Notes: generated by a model not told the origin, from the letters alone. A stretch of DNA of 64,000 nucleotides from an uncultured Gammaproteobacteria bacterium (GCA_964409875.1 CAYPEN010000002.1:1067-65066), one strand, 5' to 3'; shown: positions 2,831 through 32,725, counted from the stretch's first letter. Numbers and translations are program-made.

Positions 2831-3074
2831 AATGTGTTTTATGGCACTTACTTTAGCAAATGCCAGCGATTTTGCTACGCAAAATCTTTCGCAAGCTGTA
2901 AAAGAGCGTTTGCAGGGATTTGCACGCTAATTCGCAAATCTTTCAAACACAAGGGAAAATTATAACAGAACCGCAAATTCAAAGCAAATACTATAGGGCA
3001 AAAAATATGCAAGGCGAAAATTTTTACAAAAAAAGGATTGTTTGAGTGAAGATAACTGATGTATATGTAGGGAA

Positions 3075-3166
3075 TAGCCCCACCCCTTCTGTTTGAAGAG
3101 GTGGGGCCGTTGGTGTCCTTAGTTTTATTACAAAACCATGGACGCTTGCGAAAGATCTAGTCGTCA
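3075..3166. repeat. Repeat A copy 2 (hairpin-containing, terminator-like)
   Basis: Matches 1412-1507. It is immediately downstream of the minus-strand gene 3157..3447. Confidence 0.6.
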
Positions 3167-3447
3167 GACTGGGGATAGCGAGGCCGTTCTCCGGCGAGAA
3201 ACGCCTCGTAGGAGACAAACTCACCGACTGGCCCGATGTTGCTGAAGATGCGCGACGTTGCGTACACCTTCTCGATCCCAACAGCTGGTTTCCTGCCCGT
3301 AAAAGGCGTGTACTCGATGGTAGTCCTGCCTTCTCCAAGGCAATCGCGGCATACGACGCCGACACCTTTCGGTTCGGCGTAACCGCGATAGACCCCTGTA
3401 CCGCCACAAGGGCGGCACTCGACTTCGAGCTTGACTTTGTCTGTCAT
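3157..3447 (-). CDS. zinc-ribbon protein with two CxxCxGxG motifs (DnaJ-type zinc-finger-like)
   Basis: Contains CRPCGGTG and CRDCLGEG. An SD lies upstream. Confidence 0.5.
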   Translation of the reverse strand: MTDKVKLEVECRPCGGTGVYRGYAEPKGVGVVCRDCLGEGRTTIEYTPFTGRKPAVGIEKVYATSRIFSNIGPVGEFVSYEAFLAGERPRYPQSDD

Positions 3448-3477
3448 GCTTACCTTTCTGCTTTCTCCAGGACTGGA

Positions 3478-4038
3478 CTACGCCTTGGGGCCGATTTTAC
3501 CCGCCGACTGGCGGTACAGCGGAGCGACCTGCAGGATTTGACCTGATTGCGTTCCGTTAATCACAAGTGTCGCACTCGGTGCGGTGTAGCTTCCGAAATA
3601 ACTCTCAAGAAGCGCAATCGCCACCGAATAGAACTCGTCGTCTGTCTTGTAGCCGCTGGGCTTGCTGAACAAGGCGCCGGCAAGCTTCGTCCCCATAGTC
3701 TGTATCTGGTTGCTCGCGCCGGCAGGATCGGTGAAACATCCCATGACGCGGATGCCGATCACCGGATCGGGTGCCCCCTTCTCGTGGTACTCAGTCCCCG
3801 TGGGGAAGAGCGCGTCGAAAAGGACTATGACTGCCCCACCGGTGCAGCGGACACTCCGCTGTCCCGAAGGAACTGTTGAGCGTGGAATAACAGTTGGACT
3901 TTGCACAGGTTGGATAGGACCAACGGGTGCTGAGAGGGTTGGTACCGGCGTTACTGCTGGTGTCGGTTTTTCCGCTCTGTCACCGCATCCTACGGCAACA
4001 ACGGCCACCATCAAGGCGGCCACGATAACGACTTTCAT
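3478..4038 (-). CDS. putative lipoprotein (186 aa)
   Basis: Signal peptide MKVVIVAALMVAVVAVGC with a lipobox Cys. SD ggagagg upstream. Confidence 0.55.
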   Translation of the reverse strand: MKVVIVAALMVAVVAVGCGDRAEKPTPAVTPVPTLSAPVGPIQPVQSPTVIPRSTVPSGQRSVRCTGGAVIVLFDALFPTGTEYHEKGAPDPVIGIRVMGCFTDPAGASNQIQTMGTKLAGALFSKPSGYKTDDEFYSVAIALLESYFGSYTAPSATLVINGTQSGQILQVAPLYRQSAGKIGPKA

Positions 4039-4107
4039 GTGTATCCTCTCCAGTTGGGTTCGTGCCGAAAACCTCGGTCAGGTCCCCCGAGGGGGTCGTA
4101 GCCGAAG

Positions 4108-4375
4108 CTAAGCTGTTGCGAGCTGGCGAGCTGGCTCGCCCAGGAGACGCGCGTAGTAGCGCTCCTCGATCTTTTTGGCCACTGCCTCCATCGCCTTGAT
4201 GAGGTCGTGGCCGGACAGCACCTGCACGATGAGCCTGGTACCTTGCCAGAACTTGTGTTCGATGGAGACTTCTTGGCCCTCCGCCATCCTGGCGGTGTAG
4301 GTGAAGATGTCGTCCCGGATCTGAGCGGCCACCCGCAGTGCGAATGGAAGCTCGTCGTTGGTGTTGATGATCATC
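4108..4375 (-). CDS. hypothetical protein (89 aa)
   Basis: I chose the internal ATG (MIINTNDELPF...) because it has a strong SD (aaaggag) 7 nt upstream. Confidence 0.45.
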
Positions 4376-4772
4376 GTGAAGCTCCTTTGATTTCGGTGTG
4401 GGGTTGAGTTGATGGCTGGCTGTAGAGACGTGTCCATTCGAGGACCGCGTCATCCCAGAAGGGTTTGGGGCACCATTTCTGTGCCCTGAATCCCTTTGTT
4501 GTCCTTTGGAGTTCGAATGCGATTTCCTTCCCCCGCTTGAGGAAGGTTTCCGCCTTTTCGATCTCTTTGGGAGTTGGTGTTTCGGTTCCGAACTCTACTC
4601 CTCCGGCTGTTATAACCGGCAGAAAGAGAGCGTCCAAGTGCAGGAGGATGTCCTGCCCCTGGGTAAGCCTTGCGGCTTGGGAGCCCTTCGGAGGATGGAG
4701 AAATCCATACCTCCTTTCTTCCCGGCGGAAATATGTATCCACCGGAGCGCTTAGCGGAGTCGCTAAACTCAC
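4371..4772 (-). CDS. cold-shock-domain-like protein, paralog of 2308..2709
   Basis: RYGFLHPPKGS...GQDILLHLDALF. Homologous to the 2308..2709 product. Confidence 0.5.
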   Translation of the reverse strand: MSLATPLSAPVDTYFRREERRYGFLHPPKGSQAARLTQGQDILLHLDALFLPVITAGGVEFGTETPTPKEIEKAETFLKRGKEIAFELQRTTKGFRAQKWCPKPFWDDAVLEWTRLYSQPSTQPHTEIKGASR

Positions 4773-4800
4773 CTGCCTACCTACCTGATTGCCTTTCGGC

Positions 4801-4922
4801 GATACTCATCCACAATCACTTGCAGATGGCAACCAAACTACTAACCAATAACTTATAGCTACTAGCTAATAATGTTGTTGCCACCTGCAATACTTCGAAA
4901 AGTTTGAAATAAAATTCTCTCA
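4801..4922. repeat. Repeat B copy 2
   Basis: Near-identical to 2708-2830. It is followed by a promoter-like AT-rich unit homologous to 2830-3075 and 1130-1410. Confidence 0.65.
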
Positions 4923-5560
4923 TAAGGTATCTTGTGGTCTTCGCAATAAATTGTTCAGCCCAAAGATTTTCCTTGCATGCTCGTAAAAAATCTAGCATGC
5001 GACAGTTGTCGTATCGAAGATTTCTCACTTCGTTCAAAATCTTTCGCAAGTTGTTAAAGTGCAAAACAAAGCCAAAAGTATTTTTGTGCTTCAAGCTTTG
5101 TATAATTTTCTTTCTTTGCCCTTTCAAAACATGCAATACGTTTTTTCGAGGCAAAAACAGACAGAAAGTATACCAAAAAACAAGAGGAAATGCAAATACT
5201 ATGGGTTATATTTTATGTGTATTTTTGTGCTACAATCACAACTATGGAAAGAGTTGAATTGCCATCAATTGTCCAGGAGGCAAGCAAACAAATTATATTG
5301 TTTGCTGGTATAGCAGTACGACTTGCGGTATGTCCTGGAGATGATATAGCCCTCGTAAGTGGCACATTTGCAGCCGGTACCGGCCGTGACAATGGGGTCA
5401 TGAGGCAATGATGCCTACTCCACTTGAATTGGACTTAGCGGATAAAAGAAACAGGCGGTTGCCAAAAAGTCTTCGCTAGCCTCAGCCGAGATAGTCAGAC
5501 CTCGCTTAACGTCTCTATATCATAGAATTAATTGCAGCAAAGCTGTGATAACACGATGTA

Positions 5561-6550: not shown

Positions 6551-6601
6551 ATGAGGTGAAATATACGCTTTTGAGTAGAAAATAGCAAGAAAAATTTTTT
6601 G

Positions 6602-6673
6602 AGCCGATGGGGAGAATCGAACTCCCGACCTATTCTTTACGAAAGAACCGCTCTGCCACTGAGCCACATCGGC
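6602..6673 (-). tRNA. tRNA-Thr (anticodon CGU)
   Basis: Cloverleaf read by eye: acceptor GCCGATG/CATCGGC, D-arm GCTC-AGTGGCA-GAGC, anticodon loop TTCGTAA, T-arm GGGAG-TTCGATT-CTCCC. CCA is not encoded. Confidence 0.85.
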
Positions 6674-6685
6674 ACAATTTAAATT

Positions 6686-6800
6686 ATAACTCAAATCTGG
6701 GGTGGCAAGCGGAGGGGGACCCCCGTCGAGCGCCCGCAACCTGAGCTTGCGAATGGTGAGGATGTCGGACGGGGAGGAGCGCAGACAGGACCCCATCGTC
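6686..6800. repeat. GC-rich element copy 1 (about 110 nt), immediately 5' of tRNA-Thr
   Basis: About 70% identical to 10612-10720 and 28697-28822. It shares the blocks ggggtggc..cgactggg/ggaggggg..ccc and gagga..gacaggacc. Confidence 0.6.
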
Positions 6801-7018
6801 AATCTTCCATACCATATTTTATATTTCCATGAGGCTACTTTTCAATCTTAAACGCCTTATTTTTCACGGAATCGCAATTTGTAACACTATTATAAACCAA
6901 AAACAAACACTTTTATGATTTTTAATTGCACAAACAGCGCTAAATACATCAATATATATCATTTGAAGCTGGGCAATATTTTCGTCTTTGATCACAATAA
7001 GTGCCCAAAGCCACAAAA

Positions 7019-7039
7019 AACCACGCATTTTGCGTGGTT
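7019..7039. terminator. Perfect palindrome aaccacgca-ttt-tgcgtggtt
   Basis: 9-bp stem in the AT-rich intergenic region. Confidence 0.4.
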
Positions 7040-7562
7040 AAAGGTGTAGATAAGCCTCGCACAAAATCTTGAGCTAGTTTAGTTTCTGCCGAAACGAAAC
7101 TTCGATGAAGCGAGGCTTTATTTCGAGGCTTAAAGAAACAAGCTCGCTTACGACGTACTGCGTTCACTTGTATAATTTCTGCTCTTAAGCAAAGCTTGAG
7201 AGCTAATAATTCCTGCTCTTAAGAGAATGAAAAATGGCGATTCCCCGAAACATAAGTTGGGAAAAGCTCACCCTCGGACCTAAATCTGAGCGTATCTGCT
7301 TTCTTTGTGCCGGAAAATCCGGTACATACCCTGTTTCGAAAGTTGTAGAGGAAAACACGACCATTTTCCATCTACTCAAGAGCATATCTAGTATATCGCG
7401 CGCCATTAACAAGTCAAGTCTTGACATCACATTTTCTTTGTGGAATTAGCAAGGGGGAGCTATCAAAACAACAAACAATATAATCATCTACTACTATACC
7501 GGTGCTATTCCTAACAATTTTTCCTCTTCTCATTCTGTGCTCCTTTCCTATATACTAATTTT

Positions 7563-8377: not shown

Positions 8378-8905
8378 TCAGAATGTCCAGTTGAGCCGAC
8401 CGCCATGCTCCTGCAGGAGCTTGACGATGTTAGCCCGATTGGGGTTGGCTCGAGCTTGGACCTTGTTCACGACCCGGATAAGGAACTCCCGAACGACTTC
8501 TTCGTCCGAGGCCTCAGAAAGACCGGAGCCGCCAAGCGATATCCCGGCCATGAACACTCCGCCGAACCAGCCGACCGCACCGATGGGAAGTACGGCTGGA
8601 CGACGAGCCCAAACCTGCGAAAGGGTTTGCTGGAAACGGTGTGTCAGCTCCGCCTTCGCCCGGGCGTTGTTCCGGAATCGCGAAGCGAGGTCGCTGTTAC
8701 CGACCTGCTTCTCCCAGAGAAATGCGCTCTCCCATGCTTCCTGCATGAGCAAGGACGTTAAACGCTCGTATGTGAGCGTCGGATTGACGAGGGAGAGGTG
8801 GAAGCCGTCCCGCTCCTGCGCTTTCATCAGATCGCGCAGCATCGGTTCAACCTCCACGAAAGCTGCTTCGCAGTCCTCGGGTGTCAGGAAAAACGGTTTG
8901 TCCAA
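8378..8905 (-). CDS. hypothetical protein (175 aa) in a high-GC island
   Basis: TTG start with SD agaaaggata upstream. The overlapping plus-strand ORF is Arg/Ser-rich and looks like an off-frame artefact. Confidence 0.4.
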   Translation of the reverse strand: MDKPFFLTPEDCEAAFVEVEPMLRDLMKAQERDGFHLSLVNPTLTYERLTSLLMQEAWESAFLWEKQVGNSDLASRFRNNARAKAELTHRFQQTLSQVWARRPAVLPIGAVGWFGGVFMAGISLGGSGLSEASDEEVVREFLIRVVNKVQARANPNRANIVKLLQEHGGRLNWTF

Positions 8906-9016
8906 GATTTATCCTTTCTGTTAGTTGGGCTTGTCCGAAGGCTTCGGACACGAGCACGGCTTCCGCCGCCGGACAATTTGCCGTTGTTATCCCTCGCTAT
9001 CGCGAGGCTGGTCGAG

Positions 9017-9466
9017 TCACGCTCGTCGGCGAGCGTGGGTAGGAAGCGCGATTCTGGGATGGCGAATGTAGCATTCGCAACCCGTGTGCATATCGCGCAG
9101 CGCAAAAGCGACGTGGGCCGTATAGACGGGCCCGTCCGCCTCGGGAAGGATGATGACCGGCTCGACACTTCCGGTCTTTTCAACCTCACCGTCTCGCGGG
9201 TCGCTTTTGGCTGTCCAGGAGAGACTTACGACGAGCTCACGCCCATTAAAGCCTATCTCCCGGATTTCTCCCCACAGGTCACCGATGCGCTTTGGGCGCC
9301 GAACCTGCAGGAGCATGCCGGAAAGTTCCCGGCACGCAACGAAGTCTGCCCAGGGTATCGCAGTGAACACATGTCCTCCTGTTATACCCCGCCTCACAAT
9401 TTCCGTATAAGAAACTCTGAGGCAAGGTAAACAGAAAGTGTTTTTGCACGTTCTGTTAAAGAGCAA
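9017..9466 (-). CDS. hypothetical protein (high-GC island)
   Basis: The most protein-like frame in this stretch. The start is uncertain. Confidence 0.25.
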   Translation of the reverse strand: MLFNRTCKNTFCLPCLRVSYTEIVRRGITGGHVFTAIPWADFVACRELSGMLLQVRRPKRIGDLWGEIREIGFNGRELVVSLSWTAKSDPRDGEVEKTGSVEPVIILPEADGPVYTAHVAFALRDMHTGCECYIRHPRIALPTHARRRA

Positions 9467-9790
9467 ATCGTGAGTCCGGCATGCTGTTGCCAGACAACAA
9501 CTTACTCAGCAATTATATCAAGTGTGAAGCTAATTTCAATACTATAAGTTAAAAACCGTGAAGTTAATTGCCACGCTTCAGCCTGTGTATAATTTATTAC
9601 ATAATTTTCATTGCGTTTACATAGCAGTTTGGTAATTCTGTTACATGTCTAGTCTTGATGGAGTTTATTTAGCTGAAGAACACCCCGTAGATGAGGCGTT
9701 GGGATGCATGGTTCCGATTGCTCTGGCGATAGCCGGGCTTTTATTTTTTTTAACGAAACTCATTGCTTTTTAAGTATATTTGCCTCCTAT

Positions 9791-9827
9791 TTTCAGAAAG
9801 TTTTAAATTAAAACTTTCGCATACAAT
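9791..9827. repeat. Hairpin-GCATACAAT element copy 1
   Basis: Palindrome gaaagtttt-aaattaaaactttc followed by gcatacaat. Related to 9888-9920 and 11568-11610. Confidence 0.55.
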
Positions 9828-9842
9828 AAGTTAAGAAGATTA

Positions 9843-9950
9843 GTGAAGCGACTGAATAGGAGCGGAACAAAAACTCTTTACCATTTTTCAGGAACTTTTT
9901 AAAAAAGTTCCGCATACAATTTTGAAAAGAGGTTTACATCCCTTTTTGTT
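9843..9950. repeat. Hairpin-GCATACAAT element copy 2 (longer unit gtgaagcgactgaataggagcgg...ggaactttttaaaaaagttccgcatacaat)
   Basis: About 80% identical to 11526-11640. Contains a perfect palindrome. Confidence 0.6.
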
Positions 9951-10215
9951 GAATGCCTAAAAGATAAAGAACTGCTTCTTTCTTATATCTTCTATCCCCT
10001 CGGGAGTTTATGCGGATAGCGGGTAACTTACCTCTTTTCCCCCATCTTTTAATGGTTAAGGGACTGACCCGCAATAATTCGGCAACTTCACGGACTGTTA
10101 GAAGGTCTGGGAGAGATTCGATTGATATATTTTGATTAGCCATTTTCTGCCTTAAATTAACACTATCACTATCAAATGTATATTCAGAGTAGCAAAGAAT
10201 ATCATACCTTGTCAA
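9934..10215 (-). CDS. excisionase-family helix-turn-helix DNA-binding protein
   Basis: LLTVREVAELLRVSPLTIKRWGKRGKLPAIRI matches the Xis/MerR-type HTH pattern. Confidence 0.65.
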   Translation of the reverse strand: MTRYDILCYSEYTFDSDSVNLRQKMANQNISIESLPDLLTVREVAELLRVSPLTIKRWGKRGKLPAIRINSRGDRRYKKEAVLYLLGIQQKGM

Positions 10216-10343
10216 TACCCTAAATTGACTAATTTAGTTTTGTCAAAGACTCTCTACGATATTCATGCCCTACACTATGACACAACCTGTGACAAAAATA
10301 AGAAACGCAGGAAATTTTTGAAAGATTTGAAAATTCCGAAAGT

Positions 10344-11228
10344 CTAAGAAAAACGCTCTCTTAGAACTGCATATGCAAATCTTGGCAACGCAAGTTGTCT
10401 TTTAATTCTCCACGGCTGCATTGCAAGTCGGAATGCCCACTCCATCCCCATATCTCTCATAAACTTTGGTGCTCGTCTCACTTTCCCCGATACATAATCA
10501 AAAGCACCCCCTACTCCCATAGCAACTGTTACATCGATACTATCAAGATTTTTTGCAATCCACTCCTCCTGCTTTGGCGCACCGAAGGCAACAAAAAGGA
10601 TATCTATATGGGGTCTGGTAAGGGGTGGCTCGACTGGGGGACCCCCATTGTCCACCCGCAACCCAAACGAAGCGCGTGGTGAGGATGACGAATGGGGGTG
10701 AGGAGAGACAGGACCCCAAACTTCATTCTTCCACTTTTCACCTACAAAAACTACTCTAAGCCCCGGGTACTTTTCACGCAAGCACTCCGAAGCCTTCTCT
10801 GCTACACCCCTACTACCCCCTAAAAAGCCTATGTTAATAGGACGATTTGATGCTACAGCACATATTTTTTCCATTAGATCGGTACCAGTTATTCGTCCTA
10901 TAATTTTCTTTTTGAGTATCCTACCGGCTATGAGTACACCTATCCCATCGGGAAGGCTGAGGGTAGCACCATTTAGAACGTCTTGGAACCTCTTTGAGCG
11001 TGTGCCTAACATCAAAATTTCGGGATTTGGTGTTACTATATAGAATTTTTTTGAAGGGTTTTCCAGTCTTTTGAAGATATACTCTAAGACTTCACTTTCG
11101 GAAGCTGTCGTTATATCGGTTCCTAATATTTTTACGGAAGGTAAATTTTTTCCCATACTATACACTTTTTCGATTCTTTTCGTATGATTTTTCAAAGCTC
11201 TCTGTTGTTCATTTTTTTTACCCCTCAA
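10344..11228 (-). CDS. WecB/TagA/CpsF-family glycosyltransferase carrying an in-frame GC-rich insertion
   Basis: Contains ILGTDI...IVTPNPE...DGIGV...ILFVAFGAPKQEEWI. The true start may be the internal MGKNLPSVKILG. The insertion lies at 10612-10720. Confidence 0.75.
   Translation of the reverse strand: MRGKKNEQQRALKNHTKRIEKVYSMGKNLPSVKILGTDITTASESEVLEYIFKRLENPSKKFYIVTPNPEILMLGTRSKRFQDVLNGATLSLPDGIGVLIAGRILKKKIIGRITGTDLMEKICAVASNRPINIGFLGGSRGVAEKASECLREKYPGLRVVFVGEKWKNEVWGPVSPHPHSSSSPRASFGLRVDNGGPPVEPPLTRPHIDILFVAFGAPKQEEWIAKNLDSIDVTVAMGVGGAFDYVSGKVRRAPKFMRDMGMEWAFRLAMQPWRIKRQLALPRFAYAVLRERFS
10612..10720. repeat. GC-rich element copy 2, in frame inside the glycosyltransferase CDS
   Basis: Encodes VWGPVSPHPHSSSSPRASFGLRVDNGGPPVEPPLTRPH, placed where TagA homologs have a short acidic helix. 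Confidence 0.6.
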
Positions 11229-11525
11229 TTTAGCCTATGAATTCAGTCTAAGTTGCTTTTTGCACTCTCCGGTAAAGTAAAGAGCAGAACAACTCTATAA
11301 TTTATAATATATGATATATCAAAATAGTGTTTTTATCAAAAATCGTGAAAATATTTGACATATTGATAATTTTTCACATTCCTACAAGATAAAACTCACA
11401 GATTTTGAATGTCTAATATTTATTTATTAAAGGTCGCTTGCTTTCCTACTAATTTCTTACGTTTCACTCTCCTTTCTCTTATGCTTCGATTTATTTTTTT
11501 GCCATTCAACTAATACTCATTTTTA

Positions 11526-11640
11526 GTGAAACGACTGCATAGGAGCGGAGCCAAGACTCTTTTCCTATTCTCTGGAAGTTTTTGAAATAAAACTTCCGCA
11601 TACAATCAAAAAAAGAGGCTTATTTATATACTCCTCTTTA
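11526..11640. repeat. Hairpin-GCATACAAT element copy 3
   Basis: Homologous to 9843-9950. With copy 2 it brackets the excisionase-family gene and the glycosyltransferase. Confidence 0.6.
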
Positions 11641-11751
11641 ATTTCCTATTGATAGATTTCTTAGCGCAGCCCAGAAATCTTCCCCTGACCTAGTATTCAT
11701 TCCTATTGATAGATTTCTTAGCGCAGCCAAGAAAAGCATATCTTAATATTC
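11639..11751. repeat. Two degenerate tandem duplications (about 60-bp period) of the mreB 3' end
   Basis: attcctattgatagatttcttagcgcagcc occurs twice and matches the mreB terminal codons attcctgttgatgcttttcttatac. Confidence 0.6.
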
Positions 11752-12762
11752 ATTCCTGTTGATGCTTTTCTTATACAGTTCCAAATTTTCCAATGCTACT
11801 CCCGTTCCCCGTGCAACACAGTAGAGAGGGTCTTCTGCAATATAAGCGGGCACACCGGTTTCTCGCGTTATGTATTTATCCATATTTCGAAGAAGCGTTG
11901 TTCCTCCGGAAAGAACGATACCTTTATCTATAATGTCTGAAGCCAACTCAGGCGGTGTCATTTCGAAGGTTTCACGGATTGCACCAATCATTGCCTTCAA
12001 AACAGGCTGTATTGCTTCATTTATCTCAAATTCGTTGACCTCAACAGAACGTGGAAGACCTGACACACTATCCCTTCCCTTAACTTCCATCTTTTTTGTC
12101 GAAGTTGAAGCTGGGATAGCGTTTGCCATACTGACCTTTATTTCCTCTGCCGTCTGCTCCCCCACCATAAGATTGAACTTTTTCTTAATGTACGTGCCTA
12201 TCGACTCTTCCAATTTATCCCCTGCCACCCGGATAGACTTGTGGACCACAACTCCACCTAAGGAAATGACGGCAACATCGCTCGTCCCACCCCCCGAGTC
12301 CAAAATCATATGCCCGTTAGGTTGAGCGATTGGGATTTTTGCCCCGATTGCTGCAGCCAATGGCTCTTCAATGAGGTACACGGAACGCGCACCAGCAGCC
12401 ATCGTTGCGTCTAAAACCGCTCTTTTTTCTACTTGAGTAATACCAGACGGAATGCATACCATAACCTCCGGCTTCAAAAATCGGCTCTTTCCGGATACTT
12501 TTTCGATGAAATATGAAAGCATCGCCTCCGTTATGACATAATCGGCAATAACTCCGTCTTTTAAGGGCCGTGTTGCTACAATATTGCCGGGTGTGCGACC
12601 CAACATCTCTTTTGCTTCACTTCCAACTGCTACCACCTTGTTGTCATCTGCCCTTACGGCAACAACCGTTGGCTCATTGAGAACCACACCTTTCCCCCCT
12701 AAATATACCAGTGTATTTGCTGTTCCCAAATCGATACCGATGCGTTTGTTAAATATGCTCAT
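11743..12762 (-). CDS. mreB: rod-shape-determining protein MreB
   Basis: MSIFNKRIGIDLGTANTLVY... is actin-like ATPase sequence along its full length. Confidence 0.95.
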   Translation of the reverse strand: MSIFNKRIGIDLGTANTLVYLGGKGVVLNEPTVVAVRADDNKVVAVGSEAKEMLGRTPGNIVATRPLKDGVIADYVITEAMLSYFIEKVSGKSRFLKPEVMVCIPSGITQVEKRAVLDATMAAGARSVYLIEEPLAAAIGAKIPIAQPNGHMILDSGGGTSDVAVISLGGVVVHKSIRVAGDKLEESIGTYIKKKFNLMVGEQTAEEIKVSMANAIPASTSTKKMEVKGRDSVSGLPRSVEVNEFEINEAIQPVLKAMIGAIRETFEMTPPELASDIIDKGIVLSGGTTLLRNMDKYITRETGVPAYIAEDPLYCVARGTGVALENLELYKKSINRNEY

Positions 12763-12913
12763 TTTTTATATATCACACTATACAATTTCTGCATCATTTG
12801 CAGCTGCTATATCCAATATACCTTATTTCTCTTGAAATTAACAGTCATGCGTCACGCTTCTTCTTGCACTTGACCCAAAAAGTGTATAATGAGTAAGAAC
12901 GAAAGGAATTTCT

Positions 12914-14113
12914 ATGCCCAAAAAGACACTTTTTACTACAGTTATTGTACTTCTTCTCGTAAGTCTTGTTGCCTATGCTTTTATTCTATATGGCAAAGGC
13001 TATCGCCTCAATTTATCCGGTAAAGGAAGCAAGATACTTGCAGGTACCGGGCTTCTCGTTCTGACAAGTACGCCAAATGGGGCTCGCGTGTATCTTAATG
13101 ACAATTTCACAACCGCAACGGACGACACGATAAATTTACCGCCCGGTGACTATGACGTTCGAATAGAAAAAGACGGATATTATCCTTGGAAAAAGCATGT
13201 CGTACTCAAAAATGAGGCTGTTACAAAAACGGATGCGGTTCTTTTCCCCGTTGTTCCTAAGCTTGAAGGCGTTACTCTTCTTGGGGCAGAACAACCATTG
13301 GTAGATAAAACCGGAAGTTTTGTGGCCTATAAAGTAAGCTCTTCTTCTGCTGAGAACAACGGCATTTATATTCTTAACATCAATAGGCCTATCATTTCGT
13401 TTGGAAGCTCTTCAAAGCAGATTGCAAGTGATAAGGTTGATAATTTCTCAAAAGCAACAATGGAATTTTCCCCCGATGGACTTGCGCTTCTTGCAACAAT
13501 TCCTGCCCCTGCAGGAGACAGGATTTATCTCTTAAAAACAGATATGCTCAATACGGAACCTCAAAATGTAACATTTACTATCGAACAGGTTAAAAAACAA
13601 TGGGAACTTATGCAACAGCAGTTGGACAAGAAATTCATAACAAGCCTCCCGCAGGCAACACGTACATTCGTACAGGAAAACTTTTCAGAACCACAACTCT
13701 CTCCTGAGGGCGACAAAATTCTTTATATTGCTTCACAAAGCGCTACAATGCCCCACTTCATAAATCCTCCTCTTCCCTCAACAAACTCAACAGTTGAAAC
13801 AAGAAATCTAGTAAAAGGATATGCATACGTCTATCAAATAAAAGAAGACAAAAACTACCTTCTGTATGCTTTAAGTGATGGCGGACAATTACCTCATTTC
13901 ATATGGCACCCCTCTTCTGCGCACTTAGTGTTCATTGAGAACAAAAGGATAGTTTCGATGGAATATGACGGTGGTAATAAAACTACGCTGTATGCAGGTC
14001 CATTTGACCCCTCTTTTCTCTATACATGGCCTGATGGCTCAGGACTTATTATACTTACCAACTTTAACGATGAAACAGTACCTCCCAATTTGTACCGCGT
14101 AGGCCTCAGATAA
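12914..14113 (+). CDS. N-anchored PEGA-domain protein with beta-propeller-like C-terminal region
   Basis: N-terminal TM segment. PEGA-like NGARVYLNDNFTTATDDTINLPPGDYDVRIEKDGY. SD gaaagga upstream. Confidence 0.65.
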   Translation: MPKKTLFTTVIVLLLVSLVAYAFILYGKGYRLNLSGKGSKILAGTGLLVLTSTPNGARVYLNDNFTTATDDTINLPPGDYDVRIEKDGYYPWKKHVVLKNEAVTKTDAVLFPVVPKLEGVTLLGAEQPLVDKTGSFVAYKVSSSSAENNGIYILNINRPIISFGSSSKQIASDKVDNFSKATMEFSPDGLALLATIPAPAGDRIYLLKTDMLNTEPQNVTFTIEQVKKQWELMQQQLDKKFITSLPQATRTFVQENFSEPQLSPEGDKILYIASQSATMPHFINPPLPSTNSTVETRNLVKGYAYVYQIKEDKNYLLYALSDGGQLPHFIWHPSSAHLVFIENKRIVSMEYDGGNKTTLYAGPFDPSFLYTWPDGSGLIILTNFNDETVPPNLYRVGLR

Positions 14114-14234
14114 ATTATTGCTAATAGTCAATAGTCGATAGCTAATAGTCAAAACTATTATTTCAAATTATTCATTTAACTTAATGCTTCCCACTACTAG
14201 CTTTTTGCTCTTAACTATTAGTTTTTAAGTTAAT

Positions 14235-14266
14235 CCGGGGCGCTGAGTTGTGCTCAAACGCCCCGG
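14235..14266. terminator. GC hairpin ccggggcg...cgccccgg
   Basis: 8-bp GC stem downstream of the minus-strand operon. It is the left boundary of a high-GC island. Confidence 0.5.
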
Positions 14267-14282
14267 AAGGAACAGGTCAGTG

Positions 14283-14699
14283 CTAGCCGTGGCCCTGAAG
14301 GAGGACCTCGTTTTGCATAGCTGCGGCAAAGGCCGGAGTCAGCTGGTCAGGACGGATGTCCACGGGTTCACCCGGATGGTGAACCTCTCCATGCAGCTGA
14401 AGATCCGAACGAAGCCTTGCAAGATCAGCCACAGGCAAACCGAGTGCCGTGGCCGTTTTGGCGTCTTGCCTCTCTCGCGCCCTGCGCTCTCGGCCGTTCA
14501 CCCAGCGGTGAAGCTGGAAGAGCAAAACCTCCGCCTCCCTGAGCTTTTCAGGCTCAAATTGGAGAAGGATTTCGCCTTCCCCGCCGGCCTGCTTGAGCTC
14601 ATCGTTCTCGACTCGGGTCCGAAAACCCTCGTCGCTGTAGATGCGAGCCAGCTGTAGGGCCAGCTCAAGGACGTCTTTGTCAGGAATAATATCAGTCAC
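14283..14699 (-). CDS. hypothetical protein (138 aa, GTG start), high-GC island
   Basis: SD aaggaagagg upstream of the GTG. Confidence 0.45.
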   Translation of the reverse strand: MTDIIPDKDVLELALQLARIYSDEGFRTRVENDELKQAGGEGEILLQFEPEKLREAEVLLFQLHRWVNGRERRARERQDAKTATALGLPVADLARLRSDLQLHGEVHHPGEPVDIRPDQLTPAFAAAMQNEVLLQGHG

Positions 14700-14744
14700 T
14701 CTGCCTCTTCCTTACTGGTGGAAGAACCGGAAGCCGTAGTCGGC

Positions 14745-15065
14745 TTAGTGTTCTTCCATGAGCTGCCGGTCGAGCCGGATTTGCTGCGCCACCCTTCTCT
14801 CGTGCCGTCCTTTTTCAAGAGCACAAACAGCTCCCTCAATGAAGCTCACCACGAAATAAAGGAGAAGTGCCCAAAGGGCTCCTGCCGTAACCCAGAGGAT
14901 TGCGGACGGAAACACAGCCCCACCACTGATAAAAACGCCCGATGTGGCGAGTTGTGGCAGGGTCATCCACCTGATGGTTTTCTGGCCAAGCTTGTAAGCC
15001 TGCCATACTCCCACGAGTGGCAAGGAGAGCACGAAGAGCATCTCCCAGAACGCAAGTTCGCTCAT
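14745..15065 (-). CDS. hypothetical membrane protein (106 aa)
   Basis: Three hydrophobic helices. SD aaaaggaaac upstream. Confidence 0.45.
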   Translation of the reverse strand: MSELAFWEMLFVLSLPLVGVWQAYKLGQKTIRWMTLPQLATSGVFISGGAVFPSAILWVTAGALWALLLYFVVSFIEGAVCALEKGRHERRVAQQIRLDRQLMEEH

Positions 15066-15547
15066 CTTGTTGTTTCCTTTTCGAAGCTGAGGCGCTCAGC
15101 CGTTTCGGGCTGGGTGCCAACGTAGATGGTCATCTTTCCTTGGTAGGAAGGATATGTCTTGACGATGTCCTGAGCGATGGTTGCCGCTTCGGTTTTTACT
15201 TCGAGGGCGCTTTTGAAAGGCGTCACCTCATTGTGTTGATACAGAACTTCCTTGACTTGTTCATAGAACATGTCGAGGGTTTGTGGGGCCACGAACAAAG
15301 CGGGGTCTACACACGCGGTGAAAACCAACCCGGTAACGGTGACATTCTTCCCGTTCCCGCCTGTAACGGTAAAATGAGCATGTTGCAGCTCTTTTTTTAC
15401 CGGTGACAGTTTCTTGCACGACGTAAGTGGCGTGCCGACGGCGATGTACGAGGCCTTTGGAGAACTCGTACTGTGGTCTACGGAGTAGGCCAGGACGACG
15501 GCGCATAACGCCAAAATAATGATGCTGATTGAGATGCGGGGTCCCAT
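15062..15547 (-). CDS. hypothetical secreted protein (161 aa)
   Basis: Start at MGPRISISIIILALCAVVLAYS (signal peptide) with SD gggagaggaaga upstream. Confidence 0.45.
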   Translation of the reverse strand: MGPRISISIIILALCAVVLAYSVDHSTSSPKASYIAVGTPLTSCKKLSPVKKELQHAHFTVTGGNGKNVTVTGLVFTACVDPALFVAPQTLDMFYEQVKEVLYQHNEVTPFKSALEVKTEAATIAQDIVKTYPSYQGKMTIYVGTQPETAERLSFEKETTR

Positions 15548-15816
15548 GTCTTCCTCTCCCTGGAAGTGTCTGGTGCAGGGCATTTCTGTCCTGCGGGTTC
15601 GGATACTGACCTGTTGTTAATGTGCGTGAGCGCAAAACGCGCGCCCAGCATGCAAAAAAACACCAGGCGGCGCAATGCGCCAAACATCAAATTATATCAA
15701 AAAACACAATCCATTTCAAATACTACGGGATAGTATTTGAGGCTGACATATGCACTTGTAAGTTGAATAAAAATACTAAATACTAAAGGTACAACCGTTT
15801 TTAACGGCTTTATTCT

Positions 15817-16695
15817 ATGTGGGAAAAAAAGCACATTAAAAGAATTCAGGTAATTGCCATCTGCGTCATTTTTGCGTTAGTGTTATCGGTAAGACTTCAA
15901 GCAGTTACCCTTTACCCTAAATTCTCAAAAAGTGGTGACAGCGTTGTAACGGCTACTGTCGGTCAGTTTCATATTACTGTTTCAGGCTACCAGTCCCCCT
16001 ATGCCTCCATCATATTAAAAACACAAAACGGAACATTCCTCGCCTCCACAACTGCTGATGCAAAAGGGTATTTTTCTATATCAAACATACTTATTAATAG
16101 CTCAAATTTGCAGTATTGTTTTCAAGCAGTGGACTTTAAGAGGATTGGAGAATCTGATTCATGTATTACCATTACAGGAACTATTAATAAAGATTTAACG
16201 TATTCGGACATATTTCTGCCTCCGACCATAGGACTTTCCAAAAAACAAATTAATGCGGGTCAAGATGGGGTAATTTTCGGGTACTCAATGCCGGGGGCAA
16301 CTGTTTCACTCGATATTGAAGGAAAAATTGTGACGGTTACAGCCGACAGCACCGGGTATTATACCTATACATATAAAAATGTTCCTGAAGGAGTATTCCG
16401 GATTTCCGCTTCAGCAGAGCTTTCAAGCAAAAAGTCACTCGCGCCTACCAACGATGTTGTTCTTGAATCACTTTCAGTACCCCAACAGATAACGGAAACC
16501 GGCAAGAAAGTTGTTCAAAAAATTGAGAAGAAAGTTCCGTTTGATTTCTTTCCTTTCCTTCTTATCGCGCTTGCCTTCCTGGTTGCGATAGGAATTCTCC
16601 TCTATAAATTAAGGTTCAAAGTATGGGTTATATTTATTGATTTTATTAGGCGCAGAAAAAAGATGCATCATGACTGGTTCCTTGATAGATGGTAA
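15817..16695 (+). CDS. surface protein with signal peptide and C-terminal TM anchor
   Basis: Signal peptide, beta-rich middle region, C-terminal hydrophobic helix followed by basic residues. Confidence 0.6.
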   Translation: MWEKKHIKRIQVIAICVIFALVLSVRLQAVTLYPKFSKSGDSVVTATVGQFHITVSGYQSPYASIILKTQNGTFLASTTADAKGYFSISNILINSSNLQYCFQAVDFKRIGESDSCITITGTINKDLTYSDIFLPPTIGLSKKQINAGQDGVIFGYSMPGATVSLDIEGKIVTVTADSTGYYTYTYKNVPEGVFRISASAELSSKKSLAPTNDVVLESLSVPQQITETGKKVVQKIEKKVPFDFFPFLLIALAFLVAIGILLYKLRFKVWVIFIDFIRRRKKMHHDWFLDRW

Positions 16696-16784
16696 TATCC
16701 GTGAAAAATCGTGAAAAATGTGATGTAGGCTCTTGACATATACATACCTTTCTGTTTCTAATAGTAATAGCATTTAGATAAAAT

Positions 16785-18248
16785 ATGCACTTATTGTATT
16801 CAATTAGCCTCAAAAAGCTAGCACTTATTAGCGGTGTTTTTGTCGTATTGTGCATATTGTCAACTCGAATAACCCATGCAGCTTCTCTTTCTTCTGCTTC
16901 CGCAACACTTACTACTTCCCGTCCCTCTGCCTCCTCCCCGGTAAGCGCAGATGCAGCATCAGGCGTGGGCCAACTCTCAATTTTTAATAACGGCTCACGG
17001 TATTTGGCTTCCGATTCAGCCCAAATTGTGAGAGGTACGGGAATTATTAGCAATAACCCGCTAAGAATCGCTTCACAATCCGCAGCACTAACAACCGTCT
17101 ATATTTCAGGAACGCTAGGAACGGCTGCAGGAGCCGGCGCTGATGTATTGTATGTTCCTATTACTGCAATGCACACGGTAGGATTCACTGCAAATACTAC
17201 CATTCCAAGCAGCGGTAAAATTGTTATTACTTATCCCGGAACATTTACAAATAGCGCTTCGCCTTCTGCTTCTACATTTGCATTCAACGGACTTACGACA
17301 GGGAATGTAAAGTCATTCCCTGCTTCTGCCTGCAATTCTGTTTCGATTTCCTCAAGCGGCGCGCCTACAATTACCTGTACGACAAACGCAGTTCAAACTG
17401 CAGGAACCAACATACAAATTTATATCGGTTGTTCTGCTGTCGGTGGCTCTGGAGGCTGCACTACACAGGTTCCGACGTTAATCAATCCGACAAAGGCAGC
17501 AACTGCTGGTACTGCTGACATATGGAAAATCGGAGTCCAAACACAAGATGCATCTTCCGTCACCCTGGATAATTCAACGGTTGCAATAGGAACGGTCGAG
17601 TCGGTAACCGTACGTGCTACTATCGACCCGAGCCTTACATTCAGTATCGCTGGCATCAATTCGGGTGTCGCAGTAAACAACGGGAATGGAGGCTGTAGTG
17701 AGTCAGAACTCACTAATAGCGGCATCAACTCTTCAGCCACAGAGGTAGGTCTTGGCGTATTGTCAATTGCCCCCGCGGTTAATACAAAACTCAATAATAT
17801 AGCAGCCCAATTGTTAACAGTAACGACAAATGGAGCCAACGGATACTCAATCACCGCAACCTCCCCTGCTTCACTTATCAATCCAAGCACAGGATTCTTC
17901 CTCAACTCCAACACTACGCCACAGCTATTCCCTGCAACCGGACATTTCTTCGGCCTGCACGCATGTGGAGTTGACGCAGACTATTTGAGCACTAAATGGA
18001 CATCAACTACCAGTGACACTAACTGTAACTCGTATATAACAGGCTCTGCAGGAAATGTATGTAAGTATGGATGGCCGACTGCAACAACGCCCTTTGTTAT
18101 CGCACAAGACACCTCAGGTCCTATCGGGAACGGAGTACCTACAGGAAACGGGTTAACGTCAATATCATACGCCGCGACACAGGATGTGACGCTGCCACCT
18201 GGACAATATCAGACGGTTATAACGTACGTTGCGACACCGTCGTTCTAA
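16785..18248 (+). CDS. secreted Thr/Ser/Gly/Ala-rich surface protein (487 aa), paralog of 19411..20871
   Basis: Signal peptide. About 50% identical to the 19411..20871 product. Extreme C-terminus PGQYQTVITYVATPSF. Confidence 0.7.
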   Translation: MHLLYSISLKKLALISGVFVVLCILSTRITHAASLSSASATLTTSRPSASSPVSADAASGVGQLSIFNNGSRYLASDSAQIVRGTGIISNNPLRIASQSAALTTVYISGTLGTAAGAGADVLYVPITAMHTVGFTANTTIPSSGKIVITYPGTFTNSASPSASTFAFNGLTTGNVKSFPASACNSVSISSSGAPTITCTTNAVQTAGTNIQIYIGCSAVGGSGGCTTQVPTLINPTKAATAGTADIWKIGVQTQDASSVTLDNSTVAIGTVESVTVRATIDPSLTFSIAGINSGVAVNNGNGGCSESELTNSGINSSATEVGLGVLSIAPAVNTKLNNIAAQLLTVTTNGANGYSITATSPASLINPSTGFFLNSNTTPQLFPATGHFFGLHACGVDADYLSTKWTSTTSDTNCNSYITGSAGNVCKYGWPTATTPFVIAQDTSGPIGNGVPTGNGLTSISYAATQDVTLPPGQYQTVITYVATPSF

Positions 18249-28696: not shown

Positions 28697-28822
28697 AGAT
28701 GTGGGGTGGCGCGACTGGGCCCAGTTGAGAACCTAACGCAAGCGAACCCATAATCTTCTCATAAGTAGAGCGGGCGGCAAGGCTTGCAAACTGGGTGCAG
28801 GAGCGACAGGACCTCACCGATT
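28697..28822. repeat. GC-rich element copy 3, between comEA and comEC
   Basis: Homologous to 6686-6800 and 10612-10720. Confidence 0.55.
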
Positions 28823-32500: not shown

Positions 32501-32538
32501 ATTTCTGATGGATTATAGCGCGGCTCATTAACTTTCAT
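29530..32538 (-). CDS. leuS: leucyl-tRNA synthetase with inserted YdeN/RBBP9-family serine hydrolase domain
   Basis: HVGNMY (HIGH-like), KMSKSKGN and TTRPDT (editing) motifs. An extra domain of about 180 aa lies at 31258-31803. Confidence 0.9.
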   Translation of the reverse strand: MKVNEPRYNPSEIEPKWQEKWESDNTFSPDITAAKNPYFNLMMFPYPSAEGLHVGNMYAFTGADVYARFNRMQGKDVLEPIGLDGFGIHSENYALKVGRHPKVQAQIAEKNFYRQLRSIGNSFDWNRTVETYNPDYYKWTQWLFIQLFKAGLAYRDTALVNWCPKDMTVLSDEQVIDGCCERCGTKVEKKNLEQWFFRITNYADRLLKNIEGLNWTEKVKIAQRNWIGKSEGAEVEFEVATKNKYIFIHGHNGGQKKDFWQWLKTELEKRGSTVEMYDLPTNGNPDIDTQVNFLLEKHTFDSKTVVVTHSLGGDVALKLLPKLKTNIHKLIMIAPPLKPEFLDGVERPELTKACDWKFDFEAVKERVGSAIVLKDLHDDVIIPSQPEEIAARLGAKFVEVTANTPHFNTNGAEPAVLNEIVESLKVFTTRPDTLFGATFMVVAPEHALVSQIVEGSFGVDEKIRGEVAAYVEKAKAKNEIERTGEGKEKTGVFLGLYTINPVNGENIPVWVADYVLSGYGTGAIMAVPAHDGRDFAFAKKYNLPIIEVIQKTEDKRQNTEEPYEGAGVLINSKEWNGLEVPKEMGKVLNWLEEKALGKRKANYHLRDWLISRQRYWGPPIPMVYCSTCQKNGEFEVEGMSGWFSVPEAELPVLLPDVADWKPMGTGKSPLANHPEFYKTKCPHCGGDATRETDVSDTFLDSSWYFLRYPSTDVENVAFDTERTKKWLPVNQYIGGAEHSVLHLLYSRFVTMVLCDLKFIDFEEPFTNFFAHGLIIKDGAKMSKSKGNVVVPDEYISKYGADTLRTYLMFLGPYSDGGDFRDSGIEGMGRFIRKVWKLLSERVGENEELSSERARLMHKTIQGVTKDIEEFGYNTAIAKLMEWYNALNKEKDITKLEANTYLRLLAPFAPHMTEELWNMLGNNSSIHLQEWPKFDQKQLVLDTVLIIVQVNGKKRGEFELESSKITDQKEAEKRALEAVSKHTEGVTVKRVIYIPGKIVNVVI
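31258..31803 (-). other. Inserted alpha/beta serine hydrolase domain (YdeN/RBBP9-like) within leuS
   Basis: YIFIHGHNGG...FWQWLKTEL...VVVTHSLGGDVALKLL...LKDLHDDVIIP...TPHF aligns by eye with B. subtilis YdeN (IIHGY..HWFPWLKKRL..LVAHSLGC..SKDDQIVPF..HGGHF). Confidence 0.7.
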
Positions 32539-32725
32539 ATAGTAAAAGAATTGTACCAAACTTTTGCCTCAAATTATAGCCCATATGTACTTATGGTAAA
32601 ATGGCGCTGTCACTCATGCGGCCAATTCGCAAAAAGCTTGCGTTTTCGGGCTCTTGAGCAGACCGCCTAGGCTCGCCTCGGCGAGACTGGCACATTGAAA
32701 ACGCAGGAAAAGAAAGGATTAACCA

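Follow-up and report, generated by a model that had tools for sequence, protein, structure and literature searches.

Stacked, recoded copies of the mreB 3′ end and a nearby structured repeat, compared across Microgenomates

At the 3′ end of mreB in the 64,000-nucleotide (nt) stretch CAYPEN010000002.1:1067-65066 (GCA_964409875.1), here called the window, the last codons of the gene are repeated twice more downstream in a different spelling, and between positions 9780 and 11760 hairpin-bearing repeats lie on both sides of a glycosyltransferase gene and a small helix-turn-helix (HTH) gene. What process assembled such an arrangement? An earlier note on this DNA had answered with a small integrative cassette, or the remnant of one, carrying an excisionase gene and the glycosyltransferase gene and lodged at the end of mreB. 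Comparison with relatives led us elsewhere: we give about an even chance to the reading that the region is a composite of three unrelated layers, namely core genes, gene tails stacked by the insertion of hairpin cassettes of ~55 nt, and a later insertion of a structured repeat (R). The window itself, judged by its sequence, belongs to a Levybacteria genome, within the Microgenomates of the Candidate Phyla Radiation (CPR).

Read in the direction of transcription, the end of mreB is built as follows, with tail0 denoting the functional tail and e2 and e1 the displaced ones:

11743..12762, minus strand: mreB coding sequence, 339 amino acids (aa); Pfam MreB_Mbl, E = 4.9e-138.
11743..11772, minus strand: tail0, the functional tail, AAG AAA AGC ATC AAC AGG AAT GAA TAT TAA, following ...LELY.
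11720..11742, minus strand: rest of cassette A, with spacer GAT, 3′ arm ATGCTTTTCTT (11729-11739) and linker GGCTGCGCT (11720-11728).
11690..11719, minus strand: e2, a displaced tail, AAG AAA TCT ATC AAT AGG AAT GAA TAC TAG, in the -1 frame relative to mreB.
11663..11689, minus strand: rest of cassette B, with GTCAGGGGA as spacer, 3′ arm AGATTTCT (the complement of the start of e2) and linker GGGCTGCGCT.
11643..11662, minus strand: 5′ part of e1, AAGAAATCTATCAATAGGAA, that is AAG AAA TCT ATC AAT AGG AA; taken as the ancestral tail, interrupted.
11522..11642, minus strand: insertion of 121 nt splitting e1, absent from the relatives L003 and L004; a terminator-like hairpin and then the copy of R called R_right.
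11510..11521, minus strand: 3′ part of e1, AAT GAG TAT TAG (NEY*), beyond R_right; its last 11-12 nt are AATGAGTATTAG.

Three complete KKSINRNEY* tails are present, and all differences among them are synonymous. The C-terminal end of MreB (...LELYKKSINRNEY) is carried by tail0, from which e2 differs at 6 of 30 nt, including a three-base switch of a serine codon. The earlier note had seen the mreB end echoed twice, and the echoes are indeed there (11690-11719 and 11643-11662); the distal one, moreover, is complete and merely split by R_right. Removal of 11522-11642 restores GGGCTGCGCT AAG AAA TCT ATC AAT AGG AAT GAG TAT TAG TTGAATGGC..., an intact KKSINRNEY*, and the flank after this restored e1 aligns colinearly with the flank after the tail in L003, L004 and L083, the tail so flanked in the latter two being the functional one. 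The window copies share the identical run AGGAATGAATA, and the cassette B region is 97% identical to the next unit (repeat families D4 and D13); with a period of 57 nt and ~2 copies, the echoes drew no call from Tandem Repeats Finder (TRF).

Relatives, numbered L here, were gathered by a scan for MreB with one genome per species, and a scan of JGI metagenomes added 80 loci. The nearest MreB proteins, 91-98% identical, come from metagenome-assembled genomes (MAGs) of Candidatus Levybacteria/Levyibacteriota (L003-L010 and L040); more distant Levybacteria stand at ~79%, and Daviesbacteria and other Microgenomates at 60-69%. Of ~150 Microgenomates mreB loci, 14 distinct ones have displaced tails, 16 units altogether. 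Across the 16, 139 nt differences fall in synonymous codon pairs as against 12 in non-synonymous ones, with Ser AGY<->TCN and Arg AGR<->CGN switches included, and for each unit the probability that all changes would be synonymous under random substitution is at most 5e-5. Single replacements occur in the displaced tails of L045, L056 and L129, and e1 of the window is interrupted by R. In peptide the displaced copies match the tail variant of their own genome, be it KRSINRNEN*, KRSINRND*, KRSVSKR*, KRSVTKR*, KRSISKR* or KRSVSKK*. In nucleotides, displaced tails agree with functional tails of other genomes at 20-22 of 24 positions (13 of the 15 compared), whereas they agree with their own genome's tail at 11-18 of 24. 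The window and L003 illustrate this: tail0 of the window is identical at 27 of 30 nt to the displaced tail of L003, which itself differs from its own functional tail by 10 nt, all synonymous, and the functional tail of L003 matches window e1 at 24 of 30. Among divergent genomes, L028 and L129 agree at 29 of 30 nt over the tail and the start of the 3′ arm, as against ~65% for the gene, and the echo of L054 shares 25 of 30 nt with e1 of L129. From genome to genome, the cassettes resemble one another more closely than their host genes do.

The arrays are compact and largely confined to one gene. Copies lie 42-135 nt apart in all 14 array loci, no gene-sized element stands between copies in any of the 14, no further displaced copy was found within the 4-6 kb downstream flanks, and arrays occur independently of WecG, as the glycosyltransferase is called here, and of the HTH gene. 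In 1.4 Mb of sampled DNA, strings coding for the tail were found 137 times at mreB ends and once elsewhere. Among 2097 open reading frame (ORF) ends tested, a tail echo was seen at only two other genes, one in L008, where it is an ordinary exact duplicate, and one at rplL in L033. We read the displaced tails as former functional tails and not as coding sequence in current use. They are taken as relics because they fall about equally often into frames 0, +1 and +2 of mreB (5, 6 and 5 units), because none has a start codon of its own, and because some copies, besides the singly changed ones of L045, L056 and L129 and the interrupted e1, are decaying: L007 keeps KKSLEHKM, L083 only RNEY*, and the third copy of L011 is likewise decayed or partial.

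Two loci merit description in their own right. In L033, rplL (L7/L12; minus strand, 2890-3700 of the reverse-complement locus) is followed 84 nt downstream by a 20-codon echo of its tail (TAEEAKTKLTAAGATVELQ*), of which the first 31 nt are identical and the remainder carries 9 nt differences, all synonymous, with a TCGTTG-loop hairpin between the copies; it is the same phenomenon as the mreB tails, at a second essential gene. In L035, positions 7008-7150 form an A-B-A stack in which two 100%-identical A units of 45 nt (tail, 3′ arm and GCAAC) flank a differently coded B, as though a unit had been inserted with a long duplication of its target.

The architecture of the inserted unit is uniform. 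A tail is followed by a spacer of 3-9 nt, by a 3′ arm perfectly complementary to the first 8-12 nt of the tail, and by a short G+C linker, which is GGCTKCGCT in the window and L003 and elsewhere GCG plus a small hairpin, with a UUCG loop in L012, L129 and L142. The functional tail of each array forms a perfect hairpin around its stop codon. In the window this is hairpin A, in which the first 11 nt of tail0 serve as the 5′ arm of an 11-bp perfect stem, ATGCTTTTCTT complements them as the 3′ arm, and the stop codon lies in the loop. Long perfect stems starting at the first Lys codon were seen only at mreB ends that have an intact or decayed displaced tail as well; stems of 9 bp or more were counted at 10 of 155 mreB ends, compared with 16 of 1965 other ORF ends. 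Because the arms covary with the choice of Ser and Arg codons, the hairpin is either selected or young. A search of five array-bearing loci against Rfam returned tRNAs only. Fold-back (snap-back) synthesis was considered as the origin of the 3′ arms and rejected, as every stem ends exactly at the first Lys codon, even at 63% MreB identity.

A separate, dispersed motif was noticed during this work, CTTGCGAA-N3-TTCGC followed by a hairpin of variable stem with a conserved TCGYTG loop and with no Rfam match. It occurs in L020, L028 (two sites), L033, L035, L045, L054 and L056, and in the window on the minus strand at ~2854-2910; four sites adjoin mreB tail stacks (L028, L045, L054 and L056) and one adjoins the rplL echo of L033.

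Where new material enters the gene can be read from the outermost copies. The terminal copies (e1 of the window and the single copy of L003) align together with their flanks to the functional tails of L004 and L083, and since the flank is shared, the new material entered ahead of the old tail, exactly at the junction of the Tyr and Lys codons. Taken together, the comparisons demonstrate that hairpin-bounded units bringing a replacement tail have been inserted repeatedly at one fixed codon junction of mreB, that the old tails were displaced and decayed, and that divergent genomes share units. For the window we envision that two cassettes of ~55 nt would have been inserted before the original tail at the Tyr|Lys junction. 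The recoded last nine codons and stop of a cassette would become the working end of MreB, and each insertion would push the previous tail into the 3′ untranslated region (UTR), where decay would begin. Cassettes may spread between related genomes by recombination after DNA uptake, with mreB as the left anchor and the tail as the right one, and the hairpin probably works on the RNA, stabilising the 3′ end of the mRNA or forming a barrier there. Later, a segment of 121 nt, comprising a terminator hairpin and one copy of R, would have been inserted into the oldest displaced tail. Of these steps we infer the spread by uptake and recombination and the RNA-level role of the hairpin; the former is suggested because the window encodes comEC, comEA and type IV pilin genes and because it shares 100%-identical tracts with L004.

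Those tracts run 10815->8400 and 8100->7000, and the flanking DNA, mreB included, is ~80% identical; they reflect either very recent recombination between lineages or chimeric MAG assembly. A recombination breakpoint at the mreB stop codon, as a long BLAST segment between the window and L004 had suggested, was discarded, since a 100-nt profile puts the start of the identical tract inside WecG, at ~10815.

The third layer is R, a direct repeat of ~100 nt with 2.5 copies, all within 2 kb of the 64-kb window:

11523-11622, minus strand: R_right, in direct orientation to R_left, within the 121-nt insertion.
9840-9936, minus strand: R_left, ~82% identical to R_right, starting directly after the HTH stop codon.
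9791-9827, minus strand: truncated copy, the first ~45 nt of R, with ATTGTATGCG and the hairpin GAAAGTTTTAA/TTAAAACTTTC; fold z = -3.3.

The earlier note had placed hairpin-GCATACAAT repeats at about these positions, on either side of the HTH gene and the WecB/TagA-family gene, and both observations hold. GCATACAAT is found three times in the window, always in the 9780-11760 region (0.65 expected), and the 25-nt 5′ block of R only twice, in R_left and R_right (0 expected). R_right runs through ATTGTATGC, a covarying hairpin GGAAGTTTT/AAAACTTCC and a weaker second hairpin to ...TTCACTAA. Three hairpin stems of R carry compensated changes (GGAAC/GTTCC, GGAAG/CTTCC and GAAAG/CTTTC), which argues for a folded strand rather than a protein operator. 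Ahead of R_right, the insertion carries an intrinsic-terminator-like hairpin, AAAGAGG-N14-CCTCTTT followed by TTTT (11608-11639), and the 121 nt as gene-strand RNA fold with z = -3.6; at R_left, the last HTH codons form a weak 5′ half of the equivalent terminator stem. R_right is predicted to supply now the first terminator-like hairpin after mreB.

The insertion is polymorphic, and its empty site can be reconstructed by comparison with L003, L004 and L083. Many dispersed copies, as expected of miniature inverted-repeat transposable elements (MITEs) or REP sequences, were not found; outside the window R is known to us only from L004, which has the truncated copy and an R_left 100% identical to that of the window. 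BLAST of R against 162 fetched loci matched L004 only, the R signature ATAGGAGCGGA-N35-65-TCCGCATACAAT had no match in JGI metagenomes and IMG/VR, and Rfam searched over 9000-13000 at E <= 1 gave no match for R or for the tail hairpins. Several functions were tried and rejected. A sigma-70 scan puts no promoter in R, and if its TACAAT were a -10 box the transcript would run antisense into the HTH gene or mreB. As coding sequence, R offers ORFs of ~30 codons from the ATG in ATTGTATGC in both copies, with one 3-nt indel, but 11 of ~13 codon differences are non-synonymous, a Shine-Dalgarno sequence is absent and the third copy meets a stop after 4 codons. Over 24 nt, the end of the HTH gene (9945-9968) resembles 11490-11513 in inverted form (pair I1); the orientation misfits co-duplication with R, and the similarity was treated as chance. 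We can go no further than to call R a non-coding, species-specific structured 3′ UTR or intergenic module that has been copied at least once.

Between R_left and the tail array lie the genes that the earlier note took for cargo, together with a control region:

10344..11228, minus strand: WecG/TagA/CpsF-family glycosyltransferase; Pfam PF03808, E = 7e-49; TIGR00696.
9934..10215, minus strand: HTH_17/MerR-type gene, the earlier note's "Xis"; HTH_17, E = 8e-11.
11311..11377, minus strand: control region upstream of WecG, an inverted repeat and a sigma-70-like promoter.

From 9934 to 12762, mreB, WecG and the HTH gene are all on the minus strand. Gene calls put the probable start of WecG at the ATG at 11156, giving 270 aa (call in L001), and that of the HTH protein at 10143, giving probably 69 aa (9934..10143). 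The order PEGA-mreB-WecG-HTH is shared by nearly all nearest relatives (tblastn; two contigs stop before the HTH position). WecG is present in 10 of the 10 nearest Levybacteria loci. Over the wider set it stands downstream of mreB in 56 of 82 loci, the HTH gene being present in 46 of the 82, and the neighbourhood is conserved across Levybacteria and Daviesbacteria, the latter with one extra gene between mreB and WecG and with the HTH gene inverted. An old, conserved Microgenomates neighbourhood of mreB, the WecG/TagA transferase and a BldC-like protein, and not the cargo of a mobile element, is what this distribution points to. Upstream of WecG, the inverted repeat GTGAAAA-N19-TTTTCAC (window 11345-11377) is kept as GTGAAAA-N(14-19)-TTTTCAC in L003-L010 and L040, the Levybacteria loci examined, and just 3′ of it along transcription stands a sigma-70-like promoter, TTGATA-17-TATCAT (11339..11311), as a consensus match only. 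The pair fits a regulated wall-polymer operon, and the inverted repeat is a candidate operator to which the BldC-like product of the downstream gene may bind.

That protein is the most conserved of the locus: in the nearest relatives its identity is 88-100% (range from L004, L005, L009, L010 and L040) as against 53-92% for WecG. It does contain an excisionase-family winged helix-turn-helix domain (PF12728/TIGR01764; 37 bits against TIGR01764, cut-off 28.8), a domain-level trait common to BldC and MerR proteins. Its best NCBIfam match is HTH_BldC, and its best solved structures are 6AMK and 6AMA, both of BldC; residues 10-66 align with 6AMK at E = 2e-9. BldC is a 68-residue MerR-like/Xis-like developmental regulator of Streptomyces; 6AMK and 6AMA are BldC-DNA complexes, BldC closely resembles Xis in structure, and integrase- or excisionase-like is a frequent annotation of its orthologues (PMC5859096). 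The 69-aa window protein resembles BldC in aligning over nearly its full length with both structures, and differs in scoring 46 bits against HTH_BldC, under the family cut-off of 77. We take it to be a BldC-like regulator beside cell-wall genes for which the Xis label is misleading. The role of recombination directionality factor that the earlier note gave it would call for a partner integrase carried along on a mobile element; none was found among the window ORFs scanned, and the gene accompanies WecG and mreB as a conserved part of the chromosome.

With these data in hand, the rival accounts can be weighed. It is extremely improbable, in our judgement, that the whole of 9780-11760 is a small genomic island or remnant, with R as att or terminal repeats and the HTH protein as excisionase. 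The direct-orientation copies of R flanking WecG and the HTH gene and the excisionase-family domain speak for it; it fails because the supposed cargo is conserved in position across a phylum-level group, because R does not co-occur with that cargo, because the HTH protein is BldC-like and the most conserved of the locus, and because no integrase was found. L004 (MreB 97% identical) has WecG, the HTH gene and R_left and lacks R_right and the tail copies, and L003 (98%) has one tail copy and no R_right. L005, L008-L010 and L040 have both genes with no R anywhere (after the HTH gene they, like L013, show nothing R-like), and L006 has WecG without R, its contig ending before the HTH position. Flanking direct repeats of the attL/attR kind do not accompany the cargo in L004, L005, L006, L008-L010 or L040, nor do the genes show the variable presence (empty versus occupied site) that island cargo would show, and R_right interrupts a displaced mreB tail instead of marking the boundary of a gene. 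The comparison of relatives downstream of mreB, which the earlier note had proposed as its own check, contradicts the island. The same note's remark that an integrase is absent agrees with a domain scan (Phage_integrase, Resolvase and Recombinase Pfam families) that found none in 35 of the 36 window ORFs reaching 150 aa, which are all but the one of 3725 aa. No similarity of 9780-11760 to phage or plasmid records was found, and a tRNA or tmRNA was rejected as integration target near the region, the only tRNA of the window being Thr at 6601-6673.

A different use of site-specific integration seems to us quite unlikely, namely that elements with an attP overlapping the mreB 3′ end integrated repeatedly, each bringing a replacement tail, and were later deleted to leave tandem attL/attR-like tails. 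Recoded, duplicated gene ends are the classic signature of such events, as with e14 at icd; every lineage has its junction exactly at the first Lys codon, the units are stacked, and cassettes are common to divergent genomes. Several observations speak against this account, however: no gene-sized element separates the copies, which lie 42-135 nt apart in all 14 loci, without further copies in the 4-6 kb flanks; no integrase was found in the window ORFs scanned; several tail/echo pairs lack the identical core of at least 6 nt that tyrosine recombinases need; and the back-translated KKSINRNEY* pattern has no match in IMG/VR viral contigs. That elements were deleted with both att sites spared a dozen independent times is improbable. 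A serine recombinase would need only 2 nt of shared core. The att-like signature that the earlier note saw at the mreB end survives in part: the insertion does preserve the frame and bring a replacement tail, but the units are only ~55 nt long with no element between copies. We also think it unlikely that local tandem duplication by slippage, with selection for RNA structure, made the array a 3′ UTR device (an mRNA stabiliser or translation-coupled attenuator) whose codons changed in situ. The near identity of e1 and e2 in the window, the two identical A units of L035 and the ordinary exact duplicate at another gene of L008 are what slippage would leave; stems covary with codon choice, several linkers carry UUCG-type loops, an RNA-specific stability motif, and the 3′ arm can pair with the start of the upstream or the downstream tail. 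An untranslated copy should, however, gain non-synonymous changes, yet 139 of 151 differing nt lie in synonymous pairs; displaced tails are nearer to functional tails of other genomes than to their own; and with frames at 5/6/5, readthrough or a fixed frameshift cannot maintain selection. Lastly, it is very improbable that an assembler concatenated strain variants of the mreB end. All sequences are metagenome-derived, and the 100% tracts shared with L004 within ~80% DNA could partly be chimeric; yet two independent public Logan assemblies from different runs, SRR11845619 (L001, over 9372-17018) and SRR11845634 (L002, over 10106-17018), are 100% identical to the window, tail array and R_right included, which makes an artefact peculiar to one assembly unlikely. 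Arrays moreover occur in MAGs from many projects and assemblers, and their 3′ arms and linkers are seen in no single-tail genome.

Three further mechanisms were tried and rejected. A diversity-generating retroelement is at odds with differences that hit all four bases and are synonymous, and no reverse transcriptase domain was found in the window ORFs scanned; a programmed readthrough or frameshift extension of MreB is at odds with frames 0, +1 and +2 being about equal (5, 6, 5); and translational bypassing with a first tail that is complete with its stop, with the lack of matched take-off and landing codons and with random downstream frames.

The composite reading, with cassettes stacked at the Tyr|Lys junction, has several observations against it as well. 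Where a lineage has a peptide variant of its own (T, I, K, NEN, ND), the displaced tails of a genome match it, which would need closely related donors or ongoing selection on displaced copies. No enzyme, donor molecule or intermediate was identified for cassette insertion; the right-hand homology of 24-30 nt is short for homologous recombination, and in several tail pairs (L054, L035) no identical run reaches 6 nt. No bare tail seen has a downstream flank from which the 3′ arm and linker could derive, R with its 2.5 copies provides very little covariation for claims of structure or function, and all data are metagenome assemblies. Rather unlikely, in our view, is the further proposal that the units of ~55 nt are an undescribed miniature element, a hairpin cassette with its own recoded tail and stop that enters essential, highly conserved genes in frame, a few codons ahead of the stop, and that spreads among Microgenomates either with the gene and the displaced tail as its two homology arms or through a hairpin-specific enzyme. 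Its target may be mainly mreB, with one similar case at rplL, and the host protein may be left unchanged.

What follows for Microgenomates is that the last 7-9 codons of MreB have been replaced repeatedly by recoded copies with a stop-codon hairpin, each old end being left downstream as a dated relic. Should the cassettes be mobile, few known elements that preserve a host reading frame would be as small, and they would serve as markers of recombination in CPR bacteria, which are not yet open to genetics; if the array is instead a 3′ UTR device, it would imply translation-coupled control of mreB and the downstream wall-polymer genes. For annotation, the locus is a warning that an "excisionase-family" label on a small HTH protein together with flanking repeats does not make an island, a reading that comparison with relatives here overturns.

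Other features of the window deserve record. Inside WecG, at 10617-10718 on the minus strand, a GC-rich, partly palindromic insertion of ~100 nt is in frame and adds ~30 residues (…GPVSPHPHSSSSPRASFGLRVDNGGPPVEPPLTR…); it is present in the window and L004, absent from L003, L005 and L040, accounts for the split Pfam match (repeat family D6), and is separate from the tail finding. Similar copies lie at 6700-6800, adjoining tRNA-Thr, and at ~28770-28816, at the 5′ end of comEC, and it looks like a small element tolerating or preferring in-frame insertion. Patches of 52-57% G+C stand out in this genome of ~40% G+C (8378-9466, minus strand; 14250-15600; 1-1100; 3000-4800), with proteins lacking a Pfam or NCBIfam match, such as those of 149 aa and 175 aa between the HTH gene and uppP, which have 40-45% identical homologues in the same place in L005 and none in L010. 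A 136-nt direct repeat, 92% identical (2709-2844 and 4802-4937), lies upstream of two high-GC paralogous ORFs of 133 aa and has a relative at 11872-11964 of L004, and a 51-nt GC hairpin repeat occurs at 1416-1466 and 3075-3125. The leucyl-tRNA synthetase (29530-32559, minus strand) has an extra Ser_hydrolase-like domain match at residues 253-416, between its catalytic and editing parts, and a single ORF of 3725 aa (37583-48760, plus strand) contains internal repeats of 120-240 nt at 40-45 kb.

How does the locus compare with systems already known? A literature search for repeats at mreB ends in Microgenomates found nothing relevant, and as far as we have found the recurrent stacking of mreB tails has no prior description; the replacement of gene ends is itself a known theme. 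R invites comparison with small structured intergenic repeats and MITE-like elements such as REP/BIME, Correia and RPE, which it resembles in being short, non-coding and hairpin-rich, with compensated stems and one copy polymorphic against close relatives. It differs in having only 2.5 copies within 2 kb and in lacking clear terminal inverted repeats and a target duplication; the other genomes and collections searched, L004 excepted, yielded no copy. Translational bypassing elements, known from T4 gene 60 and as mitochondrial 'byps', share with the tail array a stable stop-codon hairpin, a gap of ~50 nt, small UUCG-type hairpins and a downstream stretch able to continue the protein. In the CIME/ICESt1-type model of Streptococcus thermophilus and in tmRNA/tRNA 3′-fragment arrays, tandem accretion and decay give rise to att arrays. 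The mreB arrays are like these in stacking gene 3′ ends with the oldest copy most distal and decaying; those systems keep element remnants and identical att cores, whereas the mreB arrays have only a 3′ arm and a linker of 9-60 nt. A further parallel is with phage 21 and e14 at icd in E. coli, where an integrating element replaces the 3′ end of the gene. At icd, the copies are separated by an integrase-bearing prophage or element of 15-40 kb; at mreB the unit is ~55 nt and geneless, no integrated element was found between copies in the 14 loci, the copies are 42-135 nt apart, many pairs have no shared core, and the incoming tail brings a perfect stop-codon hairpin. In both, the gene end is duplicated with little or no change to the encoded peptide, most differences being synonymous; the incoming copy is functional and the old end displaced; and the junction is precise.

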